A stretch of DNA of 45,391 bases from a virus. Lineage: Duplodnaviria > Heunggongvirae > Uroviricota > Caudoviricetes. Both the position numbers and the translations under genes were made by a program. Shown one piece after another: positions 1 to 19,560 of this stretch (positions are counted from its first letter, which is position 1; each line of letters begins with the position of its first letter). The stretch spans positions 1-45,391 of the IMG/VR virus record IMGVR_UViG_2778261297_000007; one strand, 5' to 3'. A model generated the notes under the pieces. That model had not been told where the DNA came from. It ran no database searches and saw nothing but the letters and a program-made list of their open reading frames with translations.

Positions 1-34
1 AACGTTCATCGATTATCTTGACGGAGGTGGTTCA

Positions 35-529
35 ATGTCGGTTACTGTAACAGTTGAAAAAGTAGGGGCGGCATTTGCATTGATCAAATGCCACCATAGG
101 CCTGAAGCAGAATATGAATTTACTGGTGAGTTTCTCGGGCTTTCACACGAGCTGAAGTTTGCAGGGAAGAATTTACGAGAACTGAGAGAAACTGGCTGTT
201 CTATTTATGGAATTTATCAGGATGAATACGGCATGACCTTACTTCCTGATCATCCCGGCATTAAACTGGCCGAAATACTAGCGGTATCAAATATAGGACT
301 GAATAAATTTTCGGTTTACATGGGATGTCGCGAGCAAGAGATAGTTGAATTGTTGAACGGTTCAGTTTCACTGACGAAAGCTATGGCACTCCGATTATCG
401 CATGTAGTCGGTGGAAGTTGGTCGAAGTGGATGTTAATTCAAGAGCAGTTTGAATTACAGTTGGCACAACGAGAGATTAAAGAATTAATGATTTTGACTA
501 ATATCGGGGATGAGGTCGTTGGATTATAG
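35..529 (+). CDS. HigA-like HTH (XRE-family) DNA-binding protein with ~60-aa N-terminal extension
   Basis: C-terminal half (HPGIKLAEIL...LTKAMALRLSHVVGGSWSKWMLIQEQFELQLAQ) matches the HigA-type antitoxin HTH pattern; GGAGG RBS 8 nt upstream of ATG. Confidence 0.5.
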   Translation: MSVTVTVEKVGAAFALIKCHHRPEAEYEFTGEFLGLSHELKFAGKNLRELRETGCSIYGIYQDEYGMTLLPDHPGIKLAEILAVSNIGLNKFSVYMGCREQEIVELLNGSVSLTKAMALRLSHVVGGSWSKWMLIQEQFELQLAQREIKELMILTNIGDEVVGL

Positions 530-601
530 TAAAACAACCATCTTTAACTGATGGGTTTGGCCTTTCCATCCATAAGAAAGGCCATTGCTGTAAAAAATAA
601 A

Positions 602-1228
602 TTACCCGCGACTGCAGCCGAAATTACGGTCCCCATCACCGACTATTTTAGTTCTTACTTTGGTCATGTAATCCACCCTGTTCATCAAATCGCTATAAGT
701 CTGCTCAAAGTTGTCCCTTTTACGATTTAGGAGATATTTTCCATTTGATGGGTAATTAACTAGCTTCCCAGAGTCATCTATCGGGATGCCAAGTGCACTG
801 TACCAGGCTGTTGTTATCATTGTACGTAACGTGTTACGCTTTAAGTCATAATCCCCCAAATGATAATAAGCATCCTGATTGAAACACAATATCAGATGGT
901 AATGCCGTTTTCCATTTTTGGTATATTCTCGGACCCATGCGTAACGTAAGGTTGAATGTCGGGTATCAGGCCAGTCTTTTCGTTGAGTTTTAATATGCTT
1001 ATCGTGTTCAAGCTTTGCTTTTAACGCACTGGTAAAGCGAGATATAGCACCAGAGTCAACTCTGGGTTGAAAGAATGGGTTATCCATATTTTCTGTATCA
1101 ATTGGATCATGCAGATCAACACGAAGAATCATTGAGTTAGGATGTTCGTTGAGGGAGTCATCAATAACCTGTTGTATTCTATCCCGATATAGGGATACGT
1201 GTGATCCGAATTCACTATCGTATGTCAT
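602..1228 (-). CDS. Gp2/YfjJ-like family protein (inovirus Gp2-type, island core)
   Basis: 208-aa ORF with HYHLILCF motif; size and position downstream of the DUF3987 gene as in CP4-57-type islands (recalled family resemblance, not searched). Confidence 0.4.
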   Translation of the reverse strand: MTYDSEFGSHVSLYRDRIQQVIDDSLNEHPNSMILRVDLHDPIDTENMDNPFFQPRVDSGAISRFTSALKAKLEHDKHIKTQRKDWPDTRHSTLRYAWVREYTKNGKRHYHLILCFNQDAYYHLGDYDLKRNTLRTMITTAWYSALGIPIDDSGKLVNYPSNGKYLLNRKRDNFEQTYSDLMNRVDYMTKVRTKIVGDGDRNFGCSRG

Positions 1229-1358
1229 ATTGTATCCTATTTATTGATATTGGTGTAGGTAATATATACAATATATATTACCTATCATGATAACAAACTA
1301 TTAGCCGGACTGGGCTCGGTGTTTGTTTTTACTCCTGAATTAAAATCATTTGTTATCA

Positions 1359-2774
1359 TCAAAGCTCGGGGTTTAAACCAGCTATGGTTATCAATGTGGT
1401 TTTGCCTTTCTTTGCCACTAGTATTCTATTTTGAGAGTACAACATACCGAGTAATTCATTTGCTTTACTACGCTTTCTAAATTTATTAGGACCATATTGG
1501 AGAACAGTATTTTTAGTAATGTAAGGTACAACAAGGCGGTTACAATGATTTTTTATCCACCAATAAAGCTCATCCGCCTCCGAGATTGCGGGCGTTAATT
1601 CCTGAGGTTTAGAAAATATGTGGATGTACTCATTAACATACCAGGTAGTTATCTTCACAGCATCTTCGACTGCAGAAAGAGATATATCTCCATCATTGCC
1701 ATTAAAATAATGCAGCAGAGAGGCCACTCTGGCCATATTTTCTGCGACCTTAGATGCATAGTCTCTAAAATCTGATAAGGTGCCGAGTAAGCCCATATCT
1801 GACTCCACCTTGTTATAAAATTCGATCCAGCGATTTTCTGCTTCTACAGAAAATCGCAGGCAAAGACGATCATTTTGATTATCTCTGGCAATACTTTCGT
1901 TAACTATCTCCATCAGTCGTTGATGGAATACCGGCAAATGTTCGCTTGAAACAACGGGGCTGGAGATTCTTCTGGAACCTTGCTTTGAATCAGGCTGGCA
2001 TATGAGACATCGAGCGAAAAAACCGATCCCTTTGGCTGTATCGCCTTTACGTTGCAGATAACCTTTAAACACATCAGGCTGAACCATAAGTGCTAGCGTC
2101 AGTCTGGCATCTCTGATTAATTTCTCTGGCTCACTTTTCCTTTCCACTGAAAATGTTGCGCCATCCCACATTTTGTTGATGAAAGGCAGTTCGTTCAGCG
2201 TGTAACCGTTAAAAATAGTGCCAGCCTCATCAGACATGATACCGATAGATCGCCAATAACCACAGAGGTAATCTTTAATAGCCGCAGGAGTGGCATCATT
2301 AAATATCTGCTTGAACCTGATCGGTGGTTGCTGGTGCGACGCCAACAGCGCTTTAAGTTGTTCATTTGTCGCCAGATGATCTTTGTTACGGCGAATATCT
2401 GATTTGAGTTTTGACATCAGTGCTTTTCTTTCAAAATTAAAAATTTCTTCATCACTTCGCCAGGTATTAAGAGCATGCGTGTACTTATCAAATAATTCTT
2501 CCTCCAGTTGATATAATGGCTTCATCAGCATTTTATCAACCGTACTTTTCCGTTCGCCAGATTCTGCAAGTGTCAGCAAGTAAAGTGATACTGGGCTACG
2601 TAGATTAGTAAGTCGACAAACATCAATCCGGTTCTGACAGGCAAGAGATATTACCCCAAGAGCAGAAGCAGCAATCAAACCTTGAGGGGCCTGCGTATGC
2701 TGTTCCACTTCATAAATTGCATTTCTGATAATCTGAGGGAACGCATTTACAGGAAAAGGATGACCGTTAAACAT
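1359..2774 (-). CDS. DUF3987 (YfjI-like) primase-like island protein
   Basis: 471-aa ORF directly downstream of alpA on the same strand; size and context match YfjI/DUF3987 proteins of P4-integrase islands. Confidence 0.45.
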   Translation of the reverse strand: MFNGHPFPVNAFPQIIRNAIYEVEQHTQAPQGLIAASALGVISLACQNRIDVCRLTNLRSPVSLYLLTLAESGERKSTVDKMLMKPLYQLEEELFDKYTHALNTWRSDEEIFNFERKALMSKLKSDIRRNKDHLATNEQLKALLASHQQPPIRFKQIFNDATPAAIKDYLCGYWRSIGIMSDEAGTIFNGYTLNELPFINKMWDGATFSVERKSEPEKLIRDARLTLALMVQPDVFKGYLQRKGDTAKGIGFFARCLICQPDSKQGSRRISSPVVSSEHLPVFHQRLMEIVNESIARDNQNDRLCLRFSVEAENRWIEFYNKVESDMGLLGTLSDFRDYASKVAENMARVASLLHYFNGNDGDISLSAVEDAVKITTWYVNEYIHIFSKPQELTPAISEADELYWWIKNHCNRLVVPYITKNTVLQYGPNKFRKRSKANELLGMLYSQNRILVAKKGKTTLITIAGLNPEL

Positions 2775-2900
2775 ATAATACCTCTAATACAATTCACGTT
2801 AAAAAATTCTGCGCAAGTTGTTATTCCGCTATTAATAGCAGAAATAGCAGGATGAAATAACTCTAATTACAACATTTTGAATGTATGTTAGGTAATTACT

Positions 2901-3113
2901 TCAAATAAGTTTGCTGCGTTGCGATAGCCATTCATCAATCTCTGATTCAACCCATCCAACAGATTTCACTCCGAGCATTCGCTTTTTGGGGAAGGAAGCG
3001 TCGTAACGCGGTGATTTGGGGTTCAACCAGTCGTAGATTGTTGCCCTTGCCATACCAGTTTTTTGGATTACCGTAGGTAAGCGGAGTATCCTAACGGTTG
3101 ATGGATTGTTCAT
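2901..3113 (-). CDS. alpA: AlpA-family transcriptional regulator
   Basis: 70-aa protein with the characteristic AlpA motif (ILRLPTVIQKTGMARATIYDWL...); located near a P4-type integrase. Confidence 0.8.
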   Translation of the reverse strand: MNNPSTVRILRLPTVIQKTGMARATIYDWLNPKSPRYDASFPKKRMLGVKSVGWVESEIDEWLSQRSKLI

Positions 3114-3238
3114 GCTTGATTGCCTCTCGTTAGTTCATTTTGGTTGTAGAAAGATTAGCGGCAAGCATTAATGCAAAAAATCCGCGTACCAAAAATACAT
3201 TTTTTACAACACTTAACTAATTGATATTTGGTGTTTTT

Positions 3239-3841
3239 ATGTTGACAGCGATTGAGTTTTGCGAAGAAATTAGTCAAAAATCGGTTTGTCTTTCTGGGCA
3301 GATGGTCGAATGTGATTGGGACATATACATTGATATGCTCAGCGAAAGTTATCCTGCGATACTGAAGGAACTAAGCGAAATGCGAGATCAGTTCTGGAAT
3401 TCTGATAAGGTAGGAACACGTGTGGTTTTGTATAGTGCTCCATCTCATGAAGAGTATAAATATTGTACTGGTGACAGAGTGGGTCAATTAATAGAGGAAT
3501 ATGCTGAATTATATGATCCAGTTCAGGAATGCTGGAAAGAGTTAAAGTCACGTATTTTCAGGGGAACATTTTCTCATCTTATTCAGGATCCTTTTTTAAT
3601 TAATGATGTGTTTAAATCACATCTATTTTTTGCCTCGATGTCTTATCAATGGGGAAAATCAGTTATGTCAGAGAATGAGTGTGTTGCTATTAAAGCATTC
3701 ATTAAATCTTCTGAATTATTTGATAGATGTATTGGTATGTCATGGTTTCATGTTTCTGTATGTGCTCAAAAAAATTATCCCATGTTAGAGCTAAAGCCGG
3801 AAAACAAGGTGGGAGCAGTAAAGCGGAAGTATATCGAGTAA
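3239..3841 (+). CDS. Hypothetical cargo protein (unknown function), AT-rich
   Basis: Open frame opposite to int/alpA; ATG at 3239 preferred over TTG at 3221; no recognisable domain; low GC relative to flanks. Confidence 0.4.
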   Translation: MLTAIEFCEEISQKSVCLSGQMVECDWDIYIDMLSESYPAILKELSEMRDQFWNSDKVGTRVVLYSAPSHEEYKYCTGDRVGQLIEEYAELYDPVQECWKELKSRIFRGTFSHLIQDPFLINDVFKSHLFFASMSYQWGKSVMSENECVAIKAFIKSSELFDRCIGMSWFHVSVCAQKNYPMLELKPENKVGAVKRKYIE

Positions 3842-4116
3842 TTCAAGATAAACTTGTTTATTTGATCAATGAATCTGTTCCTGAAGGTGGGTGGAAAAGT
3901 AAAGCAGCTGCGGTAAATGCTCTCATTGATCCTTTGTGGGACTTTATTAAAGAGTCAAATTTTGACATTAATAATGAAAGTAAAAAATATCGTATCGCAA
4001 CAATGAGCCAAGATGCTTTGGAAGATACTATTATTAAAAACTGGTCAAGAAATATTGAAAGTATCAAATTGGCTTTAGATAATACAGTTGCTAGAAAAAA
4101 GAAAGTCACAGGATAA
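3727..4116 (+). CDS. Hypothetical cargo protein 2 (frame -1 relative to upstream ORF; possible frameshifted continuation)
   Basis: ORF in a different frame overlapping 3727-3841 of the upstream ORF with no good independent start after 3841; may be a single gene interrupted by a frameshift or two overlapping genes. Confidence 0.3.
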   Translation: MYWYVMVSCFCMCSKKLSHVRAKAGKQGGSSKAEVYRVIQDKLVYLINESVPEGGWKSKAAAVNALIDPLWDFIKESNFDINNESKKYRIATMSQDALEDTIIKNWSRNIESIKLALDNTVARKKKVTG

Positions 4117-4142
4117 AAGCCCGTATTATTAATAGTTGAATT

Positions 4143-4167
4143 ATCAGCACCCATTATGGGTGCTGAT
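4143..4167. terminator. Bidirectional hairpin between convergent cargo gene and integrase
   Basis: Perfect inverted repeat atcagcaccc-attat-gggtgctgat located between the stop of the + cargo ORF and the stop of the - integrase. Confidence 0.4.
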
Positions 4168-4174
4168 AAAGGAT

Positions 4175-5416
4175 TCATCCCACAAGCCGTATTCCCCTAA
4201 CCCCACTATTAACGATACTGCCGCTATCTGCTGCTTTTACAAAATCAGCCCACCATTGCATCATCGGACGACGTTGCTCAAGATAATCACTGCGGTTATA
4301 AGCGCGACGCACCTCATTTTTGTCTACATGAGCAAGCGCTGCTTCAATGACATCAGGTGGAAATCCTTCCTCATTGAGTGCCGTACTGGCGATAGAACGC
4401 AAGCCGTGTGAAACAAGTACACCTCCTAAGCCAGCACGCTTGAGTGCTGCATTCACTGTTTGGCTATTCATTGGTTGGTTGGGCTTGATACGGCTAGGAA
4501 AGATAAATTCTCGGCCACCACTGAGAGGCTTCATCATTTCCAGAATAGCAAGAGCCCCATCAGATAGTGGAACCGTATGGTCCCGGTTCATCTTCATTCG
4601 AGCTGCAGGAATTTTCCATTCGCTAGCATTGAAATCGATCTCATCCCATCGAGCCTCAGCAGCTTCGGCAGGGCGGGTGATGGTTAGAAGTTGCCACATG
4701 AACAGGCATCGTGTGGACAGGCTGATACTTGCCGTGCGCATAGTCTGCATTAATTGTGGAAGTTGATCCGGGCGGATACTAGGCATGTTTTTCTTCTGCG
4801 GTTTCTCGAATGCTTTCCCGATGTTAACGCTGGGAACAGCATCAATTAGGCCTGTGTTCTGAGCATAAATCATGACTTCGTTAATACGCTGACAAAGGCG
4901 GCGAACAGTCTCTAATGCACCTCTGGCCTGAACCGGCTGCACTGCTTTAACCAGAGTATGAGCCTTAATCTCGGTGACACTGATATCACCGATTGCTGGG
5001 AAAACATCTCTCTCAAGCGAGCGCCAGATATCATCGGCATAGTCCTCTGTTACGCTGGCTTTCTTCACATTCCACCAACGCTCGGCAACTAACAGGAAAG
5101 TGTTGGTTTTAGCCTCTTGAGAATTTCTAACCTGCTCTTTCTGATGTTCCTGAGGATCAATGTCTTTCGCCAATAAAACTCGAGATTCAGCTCTGAGTTT
5201 ACGCGCATCAGAAAGGGAGACAGCAGGGTAGGCTCCGAAGCTTTGCTTGGTTCGCTGTTTTGTCAGAGGTCGATAGTAACGGAATTGCCAGAGCTTACTA
5301 CCACTGGACTTGATTAACAGAGTAAGCCCGTCACCATCATATAGCTGGTAATCGGCATCTTTAGGTTTGGCGGCTTTGATTTCCGTATCGGTTAACGGCT
5401 TGGTTTTTCTTGCCAT
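4175..5416 (-). CDS. int: Tyrosine site-specific integrase, P4-type (IntA/SlpA-like)
   Basis: Begins MARKTKPLTDTEIKAAKPKDADYQLYDGDGL (typical P4-family N-terminus); C-terminal catalytic region with R..H..R..Y-type motifs; adjacent to tmRNA 3'-end repeat. ATG at 5416 preferred over the upstream extension to 5452. Confidence 0.85.
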   Translation of the reverse strand: MARKTKPLTDTEIKAAKPKDADYQLYDGDGLTLLIKSSGSKLWQFRYYRPLTKQRTKQSFGAYPAVSLSDARKLRAESRVLLAKDIDPQEHQKEQVRNSQEAKTNTFLLVAERWWNVKKASVTEDYADDIWRSLERDVFPAIGDISVTEIKAHTLVKAVQPVQARGALETVRRLCQRINEVMIYAQNTGLIDAVPSVNIGKAFEKPQKKNMPSIRPDQLPQLMQTMRTASISLSTRCLFMWQLLTITRPAEAAEARWDEIDFNASEWKIPAARMKMNRDHTVPLSDGALAILEMMKPLSGGREFIFPSRIKPNQPMNSQTVNAALKRAGLGGVLVSHGLRSIASTALNEEGFPPDVIEAALAHVDKNEVRRAYNRSDYLEQRRPMMQWWADFVKAADSGSIVNSGVRGIRLVG

Positions 5417-5437
5417 GGGGAGTCTCCATGCGTTTAG

Positions 5438-5472
5438 GCCCAACGAAAACAATAGAGCTTTTCGTTGGGCCT
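5438..5472. promoter_or_regulatory. 13-bp-stem palindrome upstream of the integrase start
   Basis: ggcccaacgaaaa-caatagagc-ttttcgttgggcc, flanked by further tttaggcc/ggcctaaa symmetry; lies 20-55 bp upstream of the int ATG. Confidence 0.35.
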
Positions 5473-5540
5473 ATCAATGGGCCTAAAAGGTTCGGATTTA
5501 ATTAGTTCTCTTCGGACTTCGCGGGACAAAGTGAGGGCAC

Positions 5541-5572
5541 AAAAAAGCCCGCAGGGCTTGCGCCGTGCGGGC
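5541..5572 (-). terminator. Rho-independent terminator downstream of the tmRNA 3' fragment (minus strand)
   Basis: GC-rich hairpin gcccgca...tgcgggc followed on the minus strand by a T6 run. Confidence 0.5.
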
Positions 5573-5619
5573 TCTTAGGACTTCATCGGATGACTCTGGT
5601 AATCACCGATGGAGAATTT

Positions 5620-5654
5620 TGGTGGAGCTGGCGGGAGTTGAACCCGTGTCCGAA
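5620..5654 (-). repeat. att core: duplicated 3' end of tmRNA (direct repeat of 44332-44366)
   Basis: tggtggagctggcgggagttgaacccgTgtccgaa matches the intact ssrA 3' end at 44332-44366 with one mismatch; similarity stops immediately beyond. Confidence 0.75.
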
Positions 5655-5778
5655 TAATGCTTAACCTATTGAATATTAATGTTTTGTCTTTTTTGAAAGG
5701 CCTCAAGTGCATTTTACGTGCATATCGTGGTCCCTCTAACGTCCTGATTCCGTCCAACATTTTGAAATACTCACGACG

Positions 5779-6951
5779 CTACAGAGCTGCTGAAATGGCG
5801 GTTTTCCCGTCGTATTCAGCCAGGTATTTACCGTAATTGCGGAACAGCATTTCCGGCCCTTTATGCCCCATCTGCCCGGCAAGCCAGAAAAGGTTTACGC
5901 CCTGGCTAATGTGTCTGGTGGCGAATGTGTGGCGGGTCTGGTACGGGTTACGGTATCGAACGCCAGCTTTTTTGAGGGTTGGCACCCATGCTTTTTTTCG
6001 TATTGCGTCGGCGTTCGCCCAGGGCTCTCCCGTTTTAGGGTCGCTGAAAATAAACTCGCTTTTCATGAAAGTGAATTGTTTCTGCGCCTGCAGCGCGGCC
6101 AGCGCCTCGCTGTTTAATTCTACTTTACGGGTACCGGCTTTTGTTTTGGTGCCTTTCAGAACGCCAACAACACTCGCCGCCTGAACGTGAGCTGTTTTAG
6201 CGATATTGTCGAGATCAGGCCAGCGCAACGCACACAGCTCAGAGCTGCGTAAACCTGTATTGAATGCGAAACGGAACAGGTTTTCCCATTCCGGATAACT
6301 GCAGCTCTGGTAAATGGCGCTGATTTCCGCTGGTGTGAACGGATCAACTTCGTAATCGTCACTATTCGGGCTGCTGTCGATCACGTGGTACCGACTCGCG
6401 CTGACAAGGGTTACCGGGTTGATAGTCAGCAGGCCGTCTGTCACCGCTTCATCTATGGCGCTGCGCAGAAACGAGAGGTTATTCCTGATTGTTTTCAGCT
6501 TTGTTTTTCTGCTGGCGATCCAGTTTTTGAGGACCGCAGGGGTCAGTTCCGATACATGCATTTTGTGCAGCGCAGATAGCGCAGACAGGCACTTTTCATA
6601 ACCGCCAATAGTGGACGGCGAAAGGTTGCGGTTCTGGCAGATTTTCAGATACTCGTCCAGGTAGGACTTAATATTTTTGGTTTTCTTCACTACCCCGAAC
6701 AGCTCCAGTTTTTTGGAGGTGGGGAAGTATTTCGCATAATCGAATGTGCCGCCGGCGATCTGATTCTGTATCTCCCCCAGCAGGCGCTCGGCATACTTCA
6801 CGCCGCGCGCGTTTGCTTCCATTCTGGAAAGGGGCTCCCGGCAGAGAACCCCCTTGTAGGTGAATGTGATCACCAGGGTGTCGCCAGTTTTATGCTGGCG
6901 AATGGTTACTCCTCTTGGGAGAGATAATGATCCTTGTTCTTTCTTGCCCAC
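5779..6951 (-). CDS. int: Phage tyrosine integrase
   Basis: 390-aa ORF with C-terminal tyrosine-recombinase region (...RHTFATRHISQGVNLFWLAGQMGHKGPEMLFRNYGKYL); adjacent to att repeat and followed by an excisionase-like gene. Confidence 0.85.
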   Translation of the reverse strand: MGKKEQGSLSLPRGVTIRQHKTGDTLVITFTYKGVLCREPLSRMEANARGVKYAERLLGEIQNQIAGGTFDYAKYFPTSKKLELFGVVKKTKNIKSYLDEYLKICQNRNLSPSTIGGYEKCLSALSALHKMHVSELTPAVLKNWIASRKTKLKTIRNNLSFLRSAIDEAVTDGLLTINPVTLVSASRYHVIDSSPNSDDYEVDPFTPAEISAIYQSCSYPEWENLFRFAFNTGLRSSELCALRWPDLDNIAKTAHVQAASVVGVLKGTKTKAGTRKVELNSEALAALQAQKQFTFMKSEFIFSDPKTGEPWANADAIRKKAWVPTLKKAGVRYRNPYQTRHTFATRHISQGVNLFWLAGQMGHKGPEMLFRNYGKYLAEYDGKTAISAAL

Positions 6952-7115
6952 TTTGAAACCTCCGTTAAGTCTATCCAGCGTTCTTTAACGCCATCGACTT
7001 TTAATACATGGACACCCTCTTTCCATAACCCCCTTTGTATCCGTTTGTTAACGGCTTCAACCGTTTCTCCGGCGTCCCGGCAGTAGGTTGAAAGTGGTAC
7101 GCAATCAAGACTCAT
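6906..7115 (-). CDS. xis: Excisionase-like protein
   Basis: Small basic protein (MSLDCVPLSTYCRDAGETVEAVNKRIQRGLWKEGVHVLKVDGVKERWIDL...) immediately upstream of int and overlapping its start; start chosen at the internal ATG 7115. Confidence 0.6.
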   Translation of the reverse strand: MSLDCVPLSTYCRDAGETVEAVNKRIQRGLWKEGVHVLKVDGVKERWIDLTEVSKWARKNKDHYLSQEE

Positions 7116-7389
7116 GACCGACCTCCCGCCCGAATGCCTGGGCATTTTCCAGTTCATTTGCCGCATAGATAAGTGCGTTGTGGTGCGCTCTAAAACCGCC
7201 ATCAAGTTCGCTGGCCGCTCTCTTGCGCAAAAAATCGATTGCAGCCTGATAGTCTTCACTGGCTGGCAAATCTCCCACGAGCATCAGCATGTTTTCCGGG
7301 TCGACAGGGATGGTGGTGAGCCCCAGCTGCTTGGCCTTCGTTGCCAGACGGGTCCAACGCTTAATAATTTCTGAAACTGGCTTATTCAT
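7105..7389 (-). CDS. Hypothetical early protein
   Basis: 94-aa ORF with RBS; overlaps the xis start by a few nt (operon-like packing). Confidence 0.4.
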   Translation of the reverse strand: MNKPVSEIIKRWTRLATKAKQLGLTTIPVDPENMLMLVGDLPASEDYQAAIDFLRKRAASELDGGFRAHHNALIYAANELENAQAFGREVGHES

Positions 7390-7400
7390 GGAGCGCCTCG

Positions 7401-7496
7401 CTACCTCACCAAAAATTTATATTCAATCAGCGCGCCGATAACGGTGGCCGCCAGTAGCAGGGAAACAATGATGCTGAAAGTGAAGGGCTTCATCAT
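7401..7496 (-). CDS. Small hydrophobic peptide (31 aa, single predicted TM helix)
   Basis: MMKPFTFSIIVSLLLAATVIGALIEYKFLVR with AGGGG RBS; below the ORF-track size cutoff, found by manual translation. Confidence 0.3.
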   Translation of the reverse strand: MMKPFTFSIIVSLLLAATVIGALIEYKFLVR

Positions 7497-7906
7497 TTCA
7501 CCCCTGCTGGTTTGATGGCCTGCAGTGCATCAACCTCTTTAACGAATCGGTCATGCATCGCGTCCCATTTCTCACACCATTTCTCCATTTCTCGCTTGCG
7601 CGCCAGGATGCGACGCAGACGGCGAACACAACGCTGGTGGGCGGCCAGATACTCAGCCTTTGTTTCCCCGTCTCGCCATACTTCCCTGTCATCGCGATCA
7701 ATACGCACCCGCGGGTGACGCTGCGCAAAACCTGAACGCTCAAAAGCCTCGGTGGTCATGAAGAAAGCCAGATAGCGGATCGCCGTATCTCGCGTGAAGC
7801 ATTTTTTGATACGACCGTGGCGTACTGCCACGAACAGTGGGCCAACTGGCGTATCGTGTTTCTGTAATGCCAGGTCAATCATGCTTACGGTGCGCTTATC
7901 GTTCAT
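7493..7906 (-). CDS. Hypothetical early protein
   Basis: 137-aa ORF in the early-left operon; no domain recognised. Confidence 0.4.
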   Translation of the reverse strand: MNDKRTVSMIDLALQKHDTPVGPLFVAVRHGRIKKCFTRDTAIRYLAFFMTTEAFERSGFAQRHPRVRIDRDDREVWRDGETKAEYLAAHQRCVRRLRRILARKREMEKWCEKWDAMHDRFVKEVDALQAIKPAGVK

Positions 7907-8124
7907 TTCCGGTCCTTAACTTTGCTGTATCGTTCGTGACTCATTACTTCCCAGTTCTTTCCGCCATCGCGGGAGAGTAGCCGCCAGCGGTGATTAACCT
8001 TGAGGCTCAAATTACCGGAGCCGTGCATACGGCAGGGGTGAATGCGCCTTGCTCTGAACTGGCTTAAAACGTGTGCTGCTTTGAGGTGAACCCACTCAGG
8101 AATTCGTATCGCTGTAAGTGCCAC
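7903..8124 (-). CDS. Hypothetical protein
   Basis: 73-aa ORF translationally coupled to neighbours. Confidence 0.3.
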   Translation of the reverse strand: MALTAIRIPEWVHLKAAHVLSQFRARRIHPCRMHGSGNLSLKVNHRWRLLSRDGGKNWEVMSHERYSKVKDRK

Positions 8125-8350
8125 CAGCTACCTCCTCAAATCTCAGCTCCATTTCGCGCGCCATTTCGATAAATGTGGCCAGTGAGCAAATGTGCTCGTC
8201 GTCGAACAACCGGCGGTCGCATATCACCCTCCCGTTCTCGATGTGCAGGACTACCCGCCCGGTAAAATCAGGGAGGACATGCAGATCCACGTTCAACACG
8301 GGGCGGGGGATCAGCACACCCTGATAGAGCATTGTTTGTTGGTCAGCCAT
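8096..8350 (-). CDS. Hypothetical protein
   Basis: Start placed at the internal ATG (MADQQTMLYQ...) preceded by a GGAG RBS. Confidence 0.35.
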   Translation of the reverse strand: MADQQTMLYQGVLIPRPVLNVDLHVLPDFTGRVVLHIENGRVICDRRLFDDEHICSLATFIEMAREMELRFEEVAGGTYSDTNS

Positions 8351-8708
8351 TGCCGATCTCCGCATTAACTGGTTTCTGCTTTTTGACGAACTCAACCAGC
8401 TCAGAAATGAGCTCGTCGATTAATTCCTTTCCGCTATTTGTGAGGAATTCACCGCTGCCATTAACATCAACAGAGCTGCTGTAAATCCCCTTAATAGCTT
8501 TTACACCTTCGACATTTCCGTACTCACTGATCGCGAGCCTTTCGAATTTTCGTAATAATCCATCGAGAAGAATCTCTGTTAACTCGACCGTGTTAATACC
8601 GCCTTTATTGAGCTTAATAACAAGGCAGTTACTGCCCGTTTTACGCTGGTGGCGTAATAACGCTGCCTTTAAAATTCGGCGGCGATATGTCTCGATTAAT
8701 TTATCCAT
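8343..8708 (-). CDS. Hypothetical protein (AT-rich)
   Basis: 121-aa ORF; no domain recognised. Confidence 0.4.
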   Translation of the reverse strand: MDKLIETYRRRILKAALLRHQRKTGSNCLVIKLNKGGINTVELTEILLDGLLRKFERLAISEYGNVEGVKAIKGIYSSSVDVNGSGEFLTNSGKELIDELISELVEFVKKQKPVNAEIGNG

Positions 8709-8925
8709 TGCGGCGAACCTCCTCCTCTAAGCTCATAACAATTTCCTCTTCTTTTTCGGTCCAATCATTAATTTCTCCAGCAATGTCATAAACAAGAGAG
8801 CAAATAGTTTTAAGTTGGAAATGGTCCAGTTTGTCGTGATATTCAAATAATGCTTGCGTCAAGCCTGACAACTTCTCCGCTTTGATATTCACTTCCTGAA
8901 TATCCTGTCTTTTTAAAACACCCAT
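8701..8925 (-). CDS. Hypothetical acidic protein
   Basis: 74-aa ORF overlapping the downstream start. Confidence 0.35.
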   Translation of the reverse strand: MGVLKRQDIQEVNIKAEKLSGLTQALFEYHDKLDHFQLKTICSLVYDIAGEINDWTEKEEEIVMSLEEEVRRNG

Positions 8926-9031
8926 AATTAACGACCATATGCTTTTTTAATATAAAGACGAGCGATTACCTCGTAACCGCAGGCTGCATAAAGGCATGCT
9001 GTTCTGTATGCCGTCTTATCCTTGATGAAAG

Positions 9032-9424
9032 TCATACGAAGCGCCTCACAGCCAAAGAAGCGACTACCCGACCGTGAATTTTGATTTCTTTCTGTTCATT
9101 GGTGTTGAGGGTGAAAGTTTCGTAATGATGGTTATCTGAGATGATTTTTAATGAGCCATCAGCTAATGGCTCGATTCTCTTAATGAAAAGGCATGGGCGA
9201 CCAAAAGCATCCATTGTGTAAACATAAATGCCAGAGGTAAGCGCACGTCCACCGCAATCAACGAAAGCCACAACCTCACATGGTTCTATGGTCGGCTGCA
9301 TTGAATCACCTTCCATCCGGCAGCTTTGAACGCGGTTGCCAAAGTCATTAATGTTGTCAGATCCGAACAGCATTTGAGGTGTTTTAACTGGCTGATTAAT
9401 TGCGACGGAATTTTGCATTTTCAT
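9032..9424 (-). CDS. S24 (LexA/UmuD-like) peptidase-domain protein without HTH
   Basis: Contains the GDSM(QPTI) serine motif and a downstream Lys (FIKRIEP) typical of S24 self-cleaving peptidases; only 130 aa, no DNA-binding domain. Confidence 0.55.
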   Translation of the reverse strand: MKMQNSVAINQPVKTPQMLFGSDNINDFGNRVQSCRMEGDSMQPTIEPCEVVAFVDCGGRALTSGIYVYTMDAFGRPCLFIKRIEPLADGSLKIISDNHHYETFTLNTNEQKEIKIHGRVVASLAVRRFV

Positions 9425-9484
9425 TTCCTAAGGGTGAGTTTGTCCCCACCAAGAAAGGTGTTAATTAAATAATGTTAATTAATT

Positions 9485-9916
9485 TTAAATTTTGTCGGCT
9501 TGCTTGCAGATGGTTTCTTGCAAGTCGTCTAATTTTTCATAAACGATAGTTAGTGTACCGATAGCCGACAATTCCGGAGGCATGCAATCCATAGCGTTAG
9601 ATAAAGCCATTCTGCAATTGCCAATATCAGCAGACCATGAGTTAAGTTGATTGGACGTTATAATACTTGTTGGTTCTGTAAATTCACCGCACTGCTCGTT
9701 GCCTGAAATGAGCCACAGAACATCAGAATGAAGAATGTTAGCCAATTGGATTAACTGGTCAGCAAACGGAACTGTTTTTTCCGTTTCCCAGTTGTTAATG
9801 GTTTCGGTTGTTAAACCAAGATGATCAGCCAAAAAATCCTGAGAGAGTCGAAGCGAAGATCTTTGATTTAATATTCTTTTGCCGATGGTTTTGGCTACGG
9901 TGATTTGAGTATTCAT
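9485..9916 (-). CDS. XRE-family HTH transcriptional regulator
   Basis: N-terminal HTH (ILNQRSSLRLSQDFLADHLGLTTETINNWETEK) and first gene after the PL-like promoter/operator. Confidence 0.55.
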   Translation of the reverse strand: MNTQITVAKTIGKRILNQRSSLRLSQDFLADHLGLTTETINNWETEKTVPFADQLIQLANILHSDVLWLISGNEQCGEFTEPTSIITSNQLNSWSADIGNCRMALSNAMDCMPPELSAIGTLTIVYEKLDDLQETICKQADKI

Positions 9917-9948
9917 TTCATTGGCTCCGTTGTTTGCCGATGAATGAA

Positions 9949-9982
9949 CTTTAAGTCACGCAATAACTTATTGCAATAACAA
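9949..9982 (-). promoter_or_regulatory. PL-like promoter with operator repeats (TTGCAATAAC / AATAACTTATT)
   Basis: On the minus strand: TTGCAA -35, 17-bp spacer, TAAAGT -10; overlaps direct repeats GCAATAAC-TTAT-TGCAATAAC that share the AAGTTATT core with the cI-cro operators. Confidence 0.35.
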
Positions 9983-10065
9983 AACTTATTTTTATTTTGC
10001 AATTTGGTTTAATGCATTGATTTTTCTGATTAAATTTTATTGTTTTACTGCATGTATACAGCTAT

Positions 10066-10096
10066 TGATAAAGAAAAAGCCGCTTTTCAGCGGCTT
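10066..10096 (-). terminator. Rho-independent terminator downstream of cI
   Basis: Hairpin aagccgc-ttttca-gcggctt followed on the minus strand by a T-rich run. Confidence 0.45.
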
Positions 10097-10117
10097 CAAA
10101 AGGTGTGGTGTTGAAGG

Positions 10118-10816
10118 TTAGAGCCTATTGTAATTGATTGATTCGTGCATTATGGCTTTACCCATCACGTAAAGGTCATCCTGGTTTTCTTCCGTGATAT
10201 ACCATTTCTCATATGCTGGGTTATCCGATAACACTGCTAGCCTGTTTCCCTGCATCTGGAGTCGTTTTAGGTGAAATGTTTTACCAAAAACAAAGACATA
10301 TACACCATCTGTTAGAAAGTGTCGGACGGAAATGTCAACGAAGACACGATCACCGGAATTGAATGTGCTGGCCATGCTGTCGCCATTGACTGTCATTACT
10401 TTTACGACATCTTCACTACGATTTCCAAAAAGGGATTTTGCGTGTTCAGTAGTGAACTCTATAGCATGTAAAACCTCAACATATTCTGAAAGCATAAACG
10501 TGCCAGGCCCAGCACTCACCGAAAGGTCAAGAACTTCGACCCTGAATATGCCAGCGTTATCCTTTACTTCCCTGTCGGGCATAGTCTCTATCACATACCC
10601 CTGTCTGTGGGGTACATGATTTTTCCCGGTAGAAAGCCATTCAGGGCTTACACCCAGCGCATTCGCAATCTCAACCAGCTTACGTGTTGTGTTGGTTTTG
10701 CCTGCAACAAGGCGCCAGATAGCTGGTTGCGAAACCCCAACTTTCATCGCTAATTCTGCCTGTGTAAGGCCAGCGTCAACCATCGCTTTTTGAAGACGAT
10801 CTGAGAATGTGTTCAT
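10118..10816 (-). CDS. cI: CI-like repressor (HTH + S24 peptidase)
   Basis: N-terminal HTH (LTQAELAMKVGVSQPAIWRL) plus C-terminal S24 domain with GDSM motif and Lys (FHLKRL); divergent from a cro-like gene. Confidence 0.8.
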   Translation of the reverse strand: MNTFSDRLQKAMVDAGLTQAELAMKVGVSQPAIWRLVAGKTNTTRKLVEIANALGVSPEWLSTGKNHVPHRQGYVIETMPDREVKDNAGIFRVEVLDLSVSAGPGTFMLSEYVEVLHAIEFTTEHAKSLFGNRSEDVVKVMTVNGDSMASTFNSGDRVFVDISVRHFLTDGVYVFVFGKTFHLKRLQMQGNRLAVLSDNPAYEKWYITEENQDDLYVMGKAIMHESINYNRL

Positions 10817-10925
10817 ACCAATAAGCCTATACAAAAAGTTATTAAGTGGCAAATACGATAAGTTATTGCATAAAGTTATTCAAGGTTATACTCTTTCCTT
10901 GTGTTCAATAACTTTTGGTATTTTT
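10817..10925. promoter_or_regulatory. Divergent cI/cro promoter-operator region with four AAGTTATT operator half-site repeats
   Basis: aaagttattaag, aagttattgcataaagttattcaagg and inverted caataactttt; candidate -10 TATACT at 10888-10893 for cro. Confidence 0.55.
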
Positions 10926-11153
10926 ATGATCAATCAACATGTCAAGAGAGCTATCGATATTCTCGGCGGACAAGCTGCATTAGCAAGGGCTTGTGGGGTT
11001 ACTCAACCAGCTGTTTTTCGCTGGCTTAATGGTAGCCGGGTTAAGGCTGATCATGTCATGTCCATTGTTAAAGCTACTGGTGGCGAAGTTAAAGCCTACC
11101 AGATCCGCCCAGACCTTCCAGACACATTCCCTCATCCGGGAAATGAGGTGTGA
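10926..11153 (+). CDS. cro: Cro-like HTH regulator
   Basis: 75-aa protein (…GGQAALARACGVTQPAVFRWLNGSR…) divergent from cI. Confidence 0.65.
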   Translation: MINQHVKRAIDILGGQAALARACGVTQPAVFRWLNGSRVKADHVMSIVKATGGEVKAYQIRPDLPDTFPHPGNEV

Positions 11154-11161
11154 GGTGTGAT

Positions 11162-11371
11162 ATGTCGCACTCAATCACTACCGAAAACCAAGTTAAGCCA
11201 TTGGATATCGATTATCGCGATCCGCGCGGTGTGATTGTGCATGTCACCGGCTGGAATCGGGATAAACAGCAGGTGTACTTCACCAGGCAGAATTATCCGC
11301 ATGAATGTATGCAGCCTGTCTGGAAGTTCCAACAATATTTTACGAAGGTCTCGGAGGCGCAAAATGCGTGA
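11162..11371 (+). CDS. Hypothetical protein
   Basis: 69-aa ORF with GAGGTG RBS directly after cro. Confidence 0.4.
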   Translation: MSHSITTENQVKPLDIDYRDPRGVIVHVTGWNRDKQQVYFTRQNYPHECMQPVWKFQQYFTKVSEAQNA

Positions 11372-12386
11372 TTACGGAAAGGTGTCTCCTCACTTCTGGA
11401 TTGGCAGAACAGGCAAAGAGCTGCGTCAGGCTGGGCCAGAGTCTCAGCTTGTGGCGTTGTACCTGCTTACCAGTCCGCACGCCAATATGATCGGTCTTTA
11501 TTACATGCCCCTTGCGTTCCTGTCTCATGAGACTGGATTAACCATGGAAGGGGCTAAGAAGGGGCTTAATAGCGCCATTAAAGCCGGGTTTTGTAAGTAC
11601 GACGAGCATTCAGAGATGGTGTGGGTCATCGAAATGGCAACGCATCAAATCGGCGAGGCACTGAAACCCGGAGACAAGCGCTGTACTGGAGTACAGAACG
11701 AATACAACAAAGTATCGGATAACCTCTTTCTTTCAGAGTTTTACGAGAAATATTCGAAGCAGTTCAATATGACTTGCCCCCGTAGTAGTGAGCTCCAGAT
11801 CCCGGATGTAAATGAAGGGGCTTTAAAGGGGCTTGCAAGCCAAGAGCAGGAACAGGAGCAGGAGAAAGAACAAGATCAAACTACTTTGTCCGATTCGAAT
11901 CGGACCGATGGCGATAAACCTGACGAGTTGAAAGGTCAACCTGCACAGGGGAAACCTGATTCAAAATCTGATGATGCTGAGAGCCCAGATCCAGTCGATG
12001 CCGCTTTCGAAAATATTTTTTGGGGGGCTGGACTGAGGAAGGATGCCAAGGTCAAGGCTAAGTCAGCGTTCAGGACCAAATATCGCGACTGGAAAAAAGC
12101 GAACCGAGGTACGCCTGAGAACTTCGCCGTTATGCTGGCTGAAGATATCAGCCTCCGGGTGAAAACACAGCAAATGGGGTTCGACAAACTCCTGCCAGCG
12201 TCATACCTGAACGGAGAGCGCTGGAACGATGAAAAACCAAATGGAGCTCCTCAGATATCCGCAAGCGCAAACGCCATCGGTGGGACAGGTGCTTCCTGGT
12301 TCGCAAAACCAAGTGACGGTTCGGCTGAGGTATTTATCAGCCAGGCAGCCATTGACCGCATGAAGCGCGGAGCTAACCGCCCATGA
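11364..12386 (+). CDS. Putative replication/replisome-organiser protein with acidic EQ-repeat linker
   Basis: Start at ATG 11364 with GGAGG RBS; precedes the primase-helicase; contains low-complexity QEQEQEQEKEQDQ stretch. Function inferred from position only. Confidence 0.4.
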   Translation: MRDYGKVSPHFWIGRTGKELRQAGPESQLVALYLLTSPHANMIGLYYMPLAFLSHETGLTMEGAKKGLNSAIKAGFCKYDEHSEMVWVIEMATHQIGEALKPGDKRCTGVQNEYNKVSDNLFLSEFYEKYSKQFNMTCPRSSELQIPDVNEGALKGLASQEQEQEQEKEQDQTTLSDSNRTDGDKPDELKGQPAQGKPDSKSDDAESPDPVDAAFENIFWGAGLRKDAKVKAKSAFRTKYRDWKKANRGTPENFAVMLAEDISLRVKTQQMGFDKLLPASYLNGERWNDEKPNGAPQISASANAIGGTGASWFAKPSDGSAEVFISQAAIDRMKRGANRP

Positions 12387-12489
12387 AAAGAATCCTCAAA
12401 CGTCTACTGGTTGCTGGCTATAACCGCGGCTTTTTGCGTGAGGAATTCGTGACTATGTGCTTTATAAAATTCGATTTACGGAGTGTGTG

Positions 12490-14361
12490 ATGACCCCTGC
12501 TGAGTTATCTGAAAAATTGTGGGACAACGCCGAAAGAGTTGCGAAATACCTGCTTCCACGAGGACACCTCGAGGGCAAGGAGTGGTGCGCTGGTAATACC
12601 AATGGTGATGCCGGTAAGAGCCTGAAAATTAATCTCGGTGGTAAGAAGACTTGGGCAGATTTTGCAAGCGGCGACAGCGGAGACCTGCTTGATCTTTGGG
12701 TGCTGGTGCGTAACTGCCAGCTGCACGACGCTATGCGGGAAGCGAAAGAGTTCCTTGGGCTGAAGGACGACGATAACCACTTCGAGGCGAAGAAAAAAAC
12801 CTTCTCACGGCCAACCAAAAAAGGCGTTAAAAAGGCGAGCCATTGCTACGACTACCTCTCTTCCCGTGGCATCACCCGAGAGACAGCTGATCAATTCCGT
12901 GTTTCGGACGCAGTCGTCTGGTACCACGATGAAAACCGCGAAATTCCGGCAGTGGCGTTTCCGTATCTTCGCAACGGTGAGCTTTTGCAGGTAAAGCGAA
13001 TCGGCACTGAACGACCAAATGGCAAAAAGTTGATCATGGCTGAAGCTGATTGCGAGCCATGTCTGTTTGGCTGGCAGGCTATGGACGCGAAAGCTCGCGC
13101 TGTTGTGCTTTGCGAAGGAGAGATTGACTGTATGACCTACTCGCAATTCGGTATCAGTGCTCTATCGGTACCGTTCGGCGGTGGAAAAGGGGCCAAACAG
13201 CAATGGATCGAATACGAGTATCACAACCTCGACCGATTCGAAGAAATTTGGTTAAGCCTCGATAACGATGATGTAGGGCGCGAAGCCGCAAAAGAAATTG
13301 CTCGTCGCCTGGGGGAGCATCGTTGCCGCCTGGTAGAGCTGCCGCACAAAGATATCAATGAATGTCTGACCTCCGGGATGAGCGAGGATGAAATCTGGCA
13401 CTACTTGGGGACCGCTAAATTCTTCGACCCTGATGAACTCTGCTCTGCGGGTGATCTCCTTCAGGAAACACTGGATGCATTCGAGCATCGAGATGTTGGA
13501 TTATTTTCCAGCCCGTGGGATTCGCTGAACAGTAATTTCAAATTCCGCGCCGGAGAGCTGACGCTGGTTAACGGAGTAAACGGCCACGGAAAAACCGAGC
13601 TGGTGGGACATATCGCCGTCAATGCCATGAGCCAGGGAGTCCGGGTATGCATTGCCTCGCTGGAGCTTAAGCCTGGGAAAATGTTGGCTCGTCTTACCCG
13701 GCAAACCATTTGTAGAAAAAACCCAGAACGTACTGAAATCATCATGACTAACGAGTGGTTTTCTGATCGTCTTTGGGTGTTCAAACTCACCGGAACAGCC
13801 AAGGCCGATCGACTGTTGGAAATATTTGCCTATGCCAGACGCCGCTATGGAATCGATCTTTTCGTTATCGACAACTTGGCAAAATGTGGACTCGATGAGG
13901 AGGACTACGGTGGACAAAAAGAATTTATCGATACCCTCTGCGACTTTAAAAACGAGCACAACTGCCATGTTCTGCTGGTAACGCATGCCAGAAAAACAAA
14001 CGAAGCTGCACCAACAGGGAAAATGGATGTTAAAGGCACTGGCGCTTTAACTGACATGCCCGACAACGTTATGGCGGTCTGGCGTAATATCCCGCGCGAA
14101 CTGGCGCAGCGCAAAGCTGAAAGAATGGGGTATGAGAGCCTTGATAAGGACGAACAGACTGCTATCCAAATGCCCGCTTCGATGATCCGCCTGTTGAAAC
14201 AACGTGAAGGGGAAGGCTGGATCGGAGACATAGGGGCTAACTTTGATTCCCGCTCACACCAGTTTATCGAGGGTGATAAAGGGCCCTTCAATTACTTGGC
14301 CGGCAAACAGCAAAGTGAACTTGATATTGAGTGGGAAGCCACCAACGCAACGAGGTATTAA
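12490..14361 (+). CDS. Bifunctional primase/helicase (Toprim primase + RecA/DnaB-like NTPase)
   Basis: Toprim-like acidic motifs (EGEIDCMT, LDNDDVG) in the N-half and a Walker A (GVNGHGKTE) in the C-half. Confidence 0.65.
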   Translation: MTPAELSEKLWDNAERVAKYLLPRGHLEGKEWCAGNTNGDAGKSLKINLGGKKTWADFASGDSGDLLDLWVLVRNCQLHDAMREAKEFLGLKDDDNHFEAKKKTFSRPTKKGVKKASHCYDYLSSRGITRETADQFRVSDAVVWYHDENREIPAVAFPYLRNGELLQVKRIGTERPNGKKLIMAEADCEPCLFGWQAMDAKARAVVLCEGEIDCMTYSQFGISALSVPFGGGKGAKQQWIEYEYHNLDRFEEIWLSLDNDDVGREAAKEIARRLGEHRCRLVELPHKDINECLTSGMSEDEIWHYLGTAKFFDPDELCSAGDLLQETLDAFEHRDVGLFSSPWDSLNSNFKFRAGELTLVNGVNGHGKTELVGHIAVNAMSQGVRVCIASLELKPGKMLARLTRQTICRKNPERTEIIMTNEWFSDRLWVFKLTGTAKADRLLEIFAYARRRYGIDLFVIDNLAKCGLDEEDYGGQKEFIDTLCDFKNEHNCHVLLVTHARKTNEAAPTGKMDVKGTGALTDMPDNVMAVWRNIPRELAQRKAERMGYESLDKDEQTAIQMPASMIRLLKQREGEGWIGDIGANFDSRSHQFIEGDKGPFNYLAGKQQSELDIEWEATNATRY

Positions 14362-14362
14362 A

Positions 14363-14674
14363 ATGGATCGCCTAATTAGAGAAATGTCGTATCTCTTTAC
14401 CAAGCAGCGTTTTATGGAGCTTCAGGAAACGGCAAAAGACATCGCAATCGGTCATAGTGATTTTCCTGAGTGTTTCGGTCTTATTGCTGACGCCATCGCT
14501 GAATTTGTTGAAGACACTCCTGATGATGAGTGGCGAGAGCATGAAAAAATCCTTATGCACTACGTTGCTATGCGTGTTCTGACGCTGTGGGGTAACGGCG
14601 ATAAAGTGACTGATGTCCAGTGGGCGCACCCTGGCTGGTTTGGCACTGCTGAAAAGGGGGAAACCATTCAATGA
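14363..14674 (+). CDS. Hypothetical protein
   Basis: 103-aa ORF with GAGG RBS, translationally coupled to Q. Confidence 0.4.
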   Translation: MDRLIREMSYLFTKQRFMELQETAKDIAIGHSDFPECFGLIADAIAEFVEDTPDDEWREHEKILMHYVAMRVLTLWGNGDKVTDVQWAHPGWFGTAEKGETIQ

Positions 14675-15507: not shown

Positions 15508-15596
15508 CATTATTACGACATAAGGCTTGATTTTGTCCGAAGTTGTCGTGTATGCTTCTAATCATGCGGAGTAACGCCTGAAAGATTTCAACAATA

Positions 15597-15618
15597 AGCC
15601 CCTTGCGGGGCTTTTTTA
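15597..15618. terminator. Hairpin terminator between Q and the convergent moron
   Basis: aagcccc-ttgc-ggggctt followed by T6 on the plus strand; overlaps the moron stop codon. Confidence 0.5.
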
Positions 15619-16566: not shown

Positions 16567-16690
16567 ATCTTCCCTTGCTCTGGTTAGATTGAAAGCACTG
16601 CCGCTTGATATTTAACCATTTCCCTGATTGTTTTTCATCATAAAACCATATTATTGCAAGGGTAGTTTTACCTATGTATCTTCTTGCTCC

Positions 16691-16767
16691 CGGCCCTTTA
16701 GCTCAGTTGGTTAGAGCGTGCGACTCATAATCGCCCGGTCGCTGGTTCAAGTCCAGCAAGGGCCACC
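16691..16767 (+). tRNA. tRNA-Ile2 (CAU, ileX-like; may score as tRNA-Met)
   Basis: Cloverleaf with anticodon loop CTCATAA; close to the E. coli ileX sequence as recalled; ends in CCA. Confidence 0.7.
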
Positions 16768-16769
16768 AG

Positions 16770-16844: not shown

Positions 16845-16846
16845 CT

Positions 16847-16922
<76 letters not shown>

Positions 16923-16925
16923 TAT

Positions 16926-17000
<75 letters not shown>

Positions 17001-19473: not shown

Positions 19474-19560
19474 TGGGTCGCGATACAAATAACCCCAGGC
19501 CTCGCAATAGCGGGGCTTTTTTATGCGTATCACACATCCACATGTAAAAGGAAAAATACC

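Follow-up and report, generated by a model that had tools for sequence, protein, structure and literature searches.

A CP4-57-type island and an LMessi-like prophage in tandem at the 3' end of ssrA

Integrative elements often crowd at the same gene. The Islander survey counts 125 tandems among 3,919 islands, with the tmRNA gene as the most enriched target (PMC4383910), and prophages at ssrA, like tandem prophages at one locus, are routinely reported in E. coli. The stretch of DNA analysed here (the window, 45,391 nt, virus record IMGVR_UViG_2778261297_000007) raises the question of which elements share its single ssrA gene, in which order they arrived and whether one of them could exploit the other. 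A first-pass annotation had proposed that a prophage and a CP4-57/PICI-like island sit in tandem at ssrA, and that the island may be a satellite able to use this prophage or another helper phage.

Both ARAGORN and Rfam find one tmRNA gene in the window, and its 3' end recurs far from it, close to the left edge:

44332-44694, minus strand: intact ssrA (tmRNA) gene, called by ARAGORN and by Rfam (RF00023, 295.8 bits)
44332-44366: ssrA-proximal att core, serving as the functional 3' end of ssrA and carrying the bacterial C at 44359
5620-5654: displaced ssrA 3' fragment, which is the distal prophage att core, with a phage-derived T at 5647
5620-5634: int-proximal att core of the CP4-57-type island, the first 15 nt of the displaced fragment, placed by comparison with K-12 CP4-57 and psaA

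The gene is identical to K-12 ssrA over 363/363 nt, as is the ssrA of strain EC09 (363/363). When we recomputed the repeat described in the first-pass annotation, 34 of the 35 positions agreed between 5620-5654 and 44332-44366, the sole mismatch being T at 5647 versus C at 44359. Patterns of 15 nt and 27 nt taken from the ssrA end occur only twice in the window, where at most ~0.1 occurrences are expected by chance, and the displaced fragment is co-oriented with ssrA, as the Islander definition of a tandem asks for the prophage. The fragment at 5620-5654 has two roles, being at once the distal att of the prophage and the int-proximal att of the island.

Each element carries its own integrase, as in a tandem array, one on either side of the internal repeat:

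4175-5416, minus strand: intA, a CP4-57-type (P4 subfamily) integrase gene, apparently intact, 413 aa
5779-6951, minus strand: prophage tyrosine integrase, 390 aa, with Arm-DNA-bind_2 and Phage_integrase domains
6906-7115, minus strand: prophage excisionase (phrog_2917, E=1e-40)

The start of intA was placed at the ATG at 5416 and not at the TTG at 5452. Its product contains Arm-DNA-bind_3, Phage_int_M and Phage_integrase domains, matches model NF007246 with 922 bits and is 97% identical to IntA of K-12 CP4-57. The prophage integrase is 98.5% identical to Int of phage LMessi, and a BLASTP comparison of the two integrases of the window gave no significant similarity (E=3). Domains and BLASTP therefore agree with the proposal that a P4-type integrase lies left of the internal repeat and an unrelated tyrosine integrase right of it. 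At the place of the excisionase gene, the MS 115-1 annotation has a 69-aa CDS.

The insertion could be reconstructed from both of its presumed parents. On the bacterial side, EC09 is an empty-site twin in which intA directly adjoins ssrA: it differs from window positions 1-5654 at a single base, position 5647, and its ssrA-smpB flank is identical to 44332-45391. EC09 is in effect this locus minus the 38.7-kb insert. More broadly, window positions 1-5654 are 99.8-100% identical to dozens of E. coli chromosomes that have intA directly on ssrA and no prophage, and at least 80% of the island segment is found in ~380 complete E. coli genomes, the best-matching of which also have intA directly beside ssrA. 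On the phage side, the free phage LMessi (PP925823.1) carries the same 35-nt core, in its T variant, beside its int gene, flanked on one side by the sequence of window 44200-44331 and on the other by the sequence from 5655 onwards. The LMessi core is attP, and window 5620-5654 and 44332-44366 are the two recombinant junctions, attL and attR having the composition expected of attP (LMessi) crossed with attB (the EC09 empty site, different at 5647 only). The proposed tandem of a prophage and a CP4-57-like island is thus fully supported by the EC09 empty site and the LMessi attP.

Because the internal copy has the phage T and the ssrA copy the bacterial C, the crossover falls within the last 27 nt of ssrA, a stretch that runs from the second base of the 5' T-stem through the T-loop, the 3' T-stem and the 3' strand of the acceptor to the terminal ACCA. 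Within this bound of at most 27 nt, the phage crossover probably lies in the T-loop segment, by analogy with the tDNA-specific integrases that Williams is said to have described in 2002. Up to the crossover, the ssrA 3' end at 44332-44366 is rebuilt from phage DNA.

We regard it as practically negligible that the internal repeat is a similarity due to chance or duplication and that the prophage is a fixed, degraded remnant. Excision is indeed seen as a potential only, in sequence terms; against this reading, the chance expectation of the repeat pattern is near zero, the junctions exactly match the attP of a sequenced free phage, and all phage modules are present with full-length matches. For the repeat itself, an origin by chance or duplication is already refuted by the LMessi attP and the EC09 comparison. 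The prophage and its arms comprise:

5655-44331: LMessi-like lambdoid siphovirus prophage, 38,677 bp, all modules present (int/xis, S24 CI repressor, primase-helicase, Q, tRNAs, lysis, TerS/TerL, portal, protease, capsid, tape measure, J, invertible tail fibres and DinI)
5707-5725, plus strand: 19-nt motif GTGCATTTTACGTGCATAT, a candidate arm-type Int site, in the phage arm next to int
44223-44252, plus strand: both arm motifs, of 19 nt and 11 nt, for the second time, in the phage arm next to ssrA

Full-length PHROG matches were obtained for the S24-type CI, primase-helicase, Q, lysozyme, TerL, portal, major head protein, tape measure, J and the tail-fibre DNA invertase, and the lysogeny, replication, lysis, packaging, head and tail modules are all complete. 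The prophage is apparently complete and would be expected to excise by Int/Xis recombination between the 35-nt cores. In its arms, the 19-nt motif GTGCATTT(C/T)ACGTGCATAT is present as direct copies at 5707-5725 and 44223-44241, and the 11-nt TTTTGTCTTTT at 5682-5692 is repeated at 44242-44252; both are candidate arm-type sites by their architecture, and the 19-nt motif is kept in the LMessi attP and in UMNK88. The early region of the prophage is 94% identical to LMessi over 9.4 kb, with an identical attP core and identical arms on both sides, whereas its late (structural) region is a mosaic weakly related to LMessi, and it further differs by its invertible tail-fibre module and by the DinI gene at the ssrA end. 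The prophages of MS 115-1 and UMNK88 are related, lambdoid and ssrA-integrating.

Several other features were recorded inside the prophage. Downstream of Q, a tRNA cluster (16692-17000) encodes tRNA-Met/Ile(CAT), tRNA-Thr(TGT) and tRNA-Gly(TCC); ARAGORN also predicts a fourth at 16771-16844, whose two-base anticodon is abnormal; this one falls below the Rfam threshold, is unannotated by RefSeq in MS 115-1 and is probably a decayed tRNA. Between this cluster and the lysis genes, the sRNA STnc100 is matched by Rfam at 17219-17411 on the plus strand (66.5 bits, gathering score 47). The tail-fibre region at 40764-43754 has fibre and assembly ORFs in opposite orientations beside a Gin/Cin/Pin-type invertase gene (43155-43754, phrog_125) and is likely an invertible host-range switch; 41500-43643 has a 100% identical 2.1-kb copy in another prophage elsewhere in the EC09 chromosome. 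The last prophage gene before ssrA encodes a DinI-family protein (43797-44060, minus strand), and upstream of it, in the phage arm, lies a near-consensus sigma-70-like promoter (TTGACA-17-AAAAAT, 44097-44125).

Two intrinsic terminators bear on which element supplied what to the locus:

5541-5572, minus strand: island-borne intrinsic terminator, stem 5572-5546 followed by a T-run
44180-44211, minus strand: phage-borne intrinsic terminator, ~120 nt downstream of the ssrA 3' end

The first of these had been reported beside the internal repeat, and we found it to be real, on the minus strand and with both stem and T-run. It is identical in K-12 and kept in all P4-type ssrA islands that we compared, in every one of which a short spacer separates the ssrA end from a GCCCGC...GCGGGCTTTTTT terminator; the island-free junction has no such GCCCGC...GCGGGCTTTTTT terminator. 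By this distribution the terminator belongs to the island and not to the ancestral chromosome. It serves ssrA in the prophage-free K-12 and EC09, and lies here 38.7 kb away from the gene, downstream of the phage int. LMessi has the same terminator as that at 44180-44211 beside its attP, and ssrA is now terminated by this phage-borne copy.

How far the two elements depend on each other was assessed from the genomes in which the same phage integrase occurs. An identical integrase is found in 389 data blocks, ten representative contexts of which were examined (labelled by L numbers here). Five run straight into ypjA with no island (L008, L010, L011, L012 and L014), and the prophage of UMNK88, with an int 97% identical at the nucleotide level, also lies directly beside ypjA. 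The other five (L007, L009, L013, L015 and L016) have an island with a P4-type integrase beside the displaced fragment, and represent four different islands. The CP4-57-type island is the one found in MS 115-1 (= L007) and in the Logan contig L015 (99.85% identity over window 1-15616). Two others have defence-like cargo: the island of L009 (13010-21173) carries a resolvase gene, two ParB-like genes and radical SAM genes, and that of L013 (12809-16707) carries a UvrD-helicase gene and an OLD-family ATPase gene, a pair that we take to resemble the Gabija defence system. Since the same integrase or prophage lies elsewhere directly beside ypjA or beside four different islands, the recombination that placed the phage at the 3' end of ssrA was site-specific and did not depend on the resident island. 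Among 5,426 complete E. coli genomes, the phage integrase family was found in 127 and both integrases side by side in five, the nearest tandem example being MS 115-1 (96.8% identity across the junction).

By parsimony, the island would have arrived before the prophage. In the reverse order, the prophage would have come first and the island would later have entered the displaced ssrA fragment at the far end of the prophage; this fragment does keep the full 15-nt CP4-57-type core (5620-5634) and is a possible secondary attB. We consider this order highly improbable, as EC09 and dozens of other genomes have the identical island (99.8-100% over 5.65 kb) on ssrA and free of prophage, the island segment departs from EC09 only in the phage-derived base at 5647, and the same island would need to have been acquired independently in the same lineage. 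A further observation concerns genomes with the prophage and no island, and is compatible with loss of an island before or after the phage arrived. In four of the island-free lysogens (L008, L010, L011 and L012, at ~11307-11340), the displaced ssrA fragment is 5 nt short at its acceptor end, with the junction CCCGCCAGC/CAATCATG (CCAGC/CAATCATG) in place of the intact CCCGCCAGCTCCACCA/ATCATG seen in L014 and UMNK88 (for comparison, L006 at 12000-12035). This loss suggests that a P4-type island left imprecisely, be it out of the internal copy or at a time when the phage had yet to arrive and restore ssrA.

We return to the favoured order, island before prophage, and to what the island contains. 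The window covers its first 5.6 kb, in which the following genes lie left of intA:

3221-4116, plus strand: yfjH-like gene, split by a frameshift into 3221-3841 and 3727-4116, both halves matching phrog_19089
2901-3113, minus strand: alpA, AlpA/Vis-family regulator, excisionase-like (PF05930, E=8e-24)
1359-2774, minus strand: yfjI (DUF3987, helicase-like)
602-1228, minus strand: yfjJ (YagK/YfjJ, inovirus Gp2/Rep-like; Pfam YagK_YfjJ_C)
35-529, plus strand: HigA-like HTH protein

The P4-subfamily IntA immediately downstream of the ssrA end, with its conserved trailer and terminator, and the alpA-yfjI-yfjJ core in K-12 order place the island in the CP4-57 family. Locus, gene order (ssrA-intA-yfjH-alpA-yfjI-yfjJ) and orientation are those of K-12 CP4-57, and the ssrA trailer, the terminator and the TAGGCCCA repeats before intA are shared as well. 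The alpA-yfjJ module, however, is only ~78% identical to K-12 at the nucleotide level, and the cargo differs wholly, the EC09 twin having a type I R-M system, flagellin and IS elements where K-12 has abpAB, rnlAB and other genes. The yfjH-like gene is frameshifted in EC09 too, and intact, with 292 aa, in MS 115-1, B379 and L015. The gene for the HigA-like protein directly follows hsdR of a type I R-M system in EC09 and L015, and in the near-identical tandem locus of L015 hsdR and hsdS lie immediately left of the position that matches window base 1.

What would lie beyond the window is judged from EC09 and MS 115-1. Left of the window start, the EC09 island (L003, 4760-20000) continues to ~21 kb in total and is riddled with IS elements; its cargo comprises the type I R-M system, a GNAT fragment, IS3/IS30 debris, a group II intron, a flagellin gene, TnpB and IS1. 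The extra flagellin is of the FliC/FljB family; the idea that EC09 carries the flnA phase-variation island was dropped, as the flnA island sits at pgsA-yecA and has a different integrase (PMC3378880). Right beside the IS1, homology to the K-12 backbone resumes inside ygaQ, and the far end of the island is gone together with ypjA, ypjC, ileY and part of ygaQ. In EC09 the far end and its attR were lost by an IS1-associated deletion.

In K-12, CP4-57 is annotated with an att at the last ~15 nt of ssrA and a damaged distal copy, psaA, which has two 1-nt deletions. We searched for a third ssrA-derived copy with the 27-nt and 15-nt ends and the psaA variant of K-12, mismatches and indels allowed, and found none in the window, EC09, MS 115-1 or B379. 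One additional att-like match, inside gabD, is on the wrong strand and was set aside as chance. The K-12 CP4-57 right junction, BLASTed against the window, EC09, MS 115-1 and B379 loci, gave no match, and there is no psaA-type distal attR in the window or in the EC09 and MS 115-1 islands. The first-pass annotation held that if no att copy or island genes were to be found further left, the left region would be a degraded remnant rather than an intact element. As judged by proxy, the island genes do continue leftwards, in EC09, and the third att copy is absent from EC09 and MS 115-1. Because it has no attR in these proxies, the island is probably unable to excise. It departs from K-12 CP4-57 in two more respects, being split from ssrA by the prophage and having its far end probably deleted. 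Williams is also said to have associated, in 2003, damage to att sites with the CP4-57-type integrase, and both the 5-nt-short fragments and the 1-nt deletions of psaA fit such damage.

Upstream of intA lie repeated sequences that look like sites for a protein:

5435-5485, minus strand: three 8-nt TAGGCCCA sites upstream of intA

The long palindrome noted there by the first reading is real: it is a perfect inverted repeat with 15-bp arms and a 9-nt loop at 5435-5473 (z = -6.8 against shuffled sequences). On the minus strand, TAGGCCCA occurs as direct copies at 5485-5478 and 5473-5466, 12 nt apart, and as an inverted copy 31 nt further on, at 5442-5435, the last two copies forming the ends of the palindrome. 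The sole promoter-like element upstream of intA (-35 at 5477-5472, -10 at 5454-5449) overlaps these sites. In L016, the same 12-nt/31-nt geometry is found with another motif, TTGGTATAC, before an integrase 62% identical to IntA; the same geometry with a different motif at a different integrase argues for integrase-specific protein-binding sites. From this architecture, the TAGGCCCA sites are candidate arm-type sites of IntA and/or an operator. The Int and Vis proteins of P4 take part in autoregulation, and by analogy the sites would serve both recombination and the control of intA. We rejected an RNA terminator or attenuator for intA as the main reading of the palindrome, since no T-run follows it, the only promoter-like element would initiate transcription inside it, and the geometry recurs with the different motif of L016.

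Is the island a satellite of the prophage or of another phage? P4-like satellites and Gram-negative PICIs share with it a P4-type integrase, AlpA and replication-type genes beside a tRNA or tmRNA gene, but they also have a hijacking core or genes for capsid morphogenesis or packaging, and the window island is without either. SatelliteFinder recognises a P4-like core of seven components (int, psu, delta, sid, alpA, epsilon and alpha) and a PICI core of five, Types A and B of the latter needing at least four; sets with int, alpA and primase only are its 'Type C', which the authors excluded as unreliable (PMC10085698). Only int and alpA of the P4-like core are present in the window, where at least five of the seven would be expected of a P4-like satellite, and at most three functions analogous to those of PICIs (int, alpA, YfjI/YfjJ), with no packaging or capsid gene found in the window or in EC09.

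A functional PICI- or P4-like satellite, induced through AlpA by the prophage or another helper, excised, replicated by YfjI/YfjJ and packaged, is accordingly a reading that we rate as very unlikely. The int-alpA-helicase-Rep-like core does look like the part of PICIs and P4 that handles integration, regulation and replication, neither intA nor alpA is disrupted, such a gene set would be classed by SatelliteFinder as a 'Type C' PICI at most (PMC10085698), and non-autonomous Pseudomonas tmRNA islands with int, alpA and Gp2 are moved by a phage (PMC12595487). In L016, moreover, this place next to the phage integrase is taken by a true P4-like satellite. Against these points, psu, delta, sid, epsilon, the alpha primase and any gene for capsid remodelling or terminase redirection are absent from the window and from the EC09 island, the yfjH-like gene is frameshifted, the EC09 and MS 115-1 islands have no attR and are cut by IS1, and 21 kb with many IS elements contrasts with the 10-15 kb format of satellites. 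No DNA is shared by the island and the prophage, and hence no common cos. P4-like elements, as is generally known, need a P2-like helper, and this prophage is a lambdoid siphovirus. The suggestion of a PICI-like satellite exploiting a helper is therefore not supported, there being no hijacking or packaging gene and no DNA shared with the prophage. A non-canonical satellite that moves as one composite with the prophage, through the copy at 44332-44346, is less likely still than the spacer reading considered further below. That the prophage might package the island laterally or in situ was also considered unlikely, the terminase and head genes pointing towards ssrA/smpB and away from the island. 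Most likely, by its gene content and lost end, the island is a fixed and decaying cargo island rather than a satellite.

The L016 locus serves as a positive control for how a satellite looks at this ssrA position. At 11517-21173 (GCA_033757655.1), directly beside the same phage integrase, its P4-like satellite is complete and comprises int, DUF8370, psu, delta, alpA, ash, epsilon and the alpha primase, together with a probable sid.

The nearest parallel outside E. coli is given by the Pseudomonas tmRNA islands, which are also non-autonomous, carry a tyrosine integrase, AlpA, Gp2-like and HTH proteins and restriction/defence cargo, and in which newcomers land between the tmRNA gene and the resident island (PMC12595487). 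They differ in genus, in integrase lineage (IntY) and in having AlpA at the far end; moreover, transfer by a jumbo phage has been demonstrated for them (PMC12595487).

Altogether, it is very probable that two unrelated integrative elements lie in series at the 3' end of ssrA, the island having come first and the LMessi-like prophage second, with the prophage probably excisable and the island fixed cargo. By comparison with other genomes, the CP4-57-family island integrated through its P4-type IntA at the last ~15 nt of ssrA; with it came another ssrA 3' end, a terminator and the repeated sites before intA. An LMessi-like phage with a 35-nt ssrA-like attP core later recombined with ssrA, presumably by means of its own Arm-DNA-bind_2-type integrase, thereby placing the 38.7-kb prophage between ssrA and the island and displacing the ssrA copy and terminator of the latter. 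With the 3' end supplied by the phage the tmRNA stays wild type, and the phage-borne terminator takes the place of the displaced island-borne one.

In known tandem arrays at tDNAs, one intact target gene precedes a series of elements, each with an integrase and a displaced 3' fragment to itself, and integrase subfamilies differ, as they do in the window, in the sub-site of the ssrA 3' end that they use; of the two elements here, both have their integrase and the prophage has its fragment. The locus shows no difference of substance from such arrays and is one more instance of them; the tandem arrangement at ssrA is ordinary and already documented, with no new type of element or mechanism, and public genomes already contain this pair in tandem (MS 115-1, L015 and the five of 5,426 complete genomes).

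What the locus offers is a clean, base-resolved example of how a composite ssrA region can be split into its elements for annotation. It shows that the terminator beside the internal repeat is the island's and not the chromosome's, and that each incoming element brings an ssrA 3' end and a terminator. There is also a slight bearing on physiology. Excision of CP4-57 in K-12 removes U357 and so inactivates tmRNA (PMC10107115). Given an attR, IntA could use either 5620-5634, moving the island alone, or 44332-44346, moving the composite, and its action at the internal copy would leave the functional ssrA untouched, unlike the K-12 excision. An extension of this idea, to which we give only a small chance, is that the prophage acts as a spacer that uncouples the island from tmRNA, so that the excision-linked switch in ribosome rescue is lost, and that an incoming phage of this kind, with its pristine ssrA 3' end, could repair an ssrA damaged when an island was lost; if so, recombination or damage driven by IntA would fall on the dispensable copy at 5620-5634. 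Excision of the island or damage to its att would not inactivate tmRNA here, as it does with CP4-57 in K-12.
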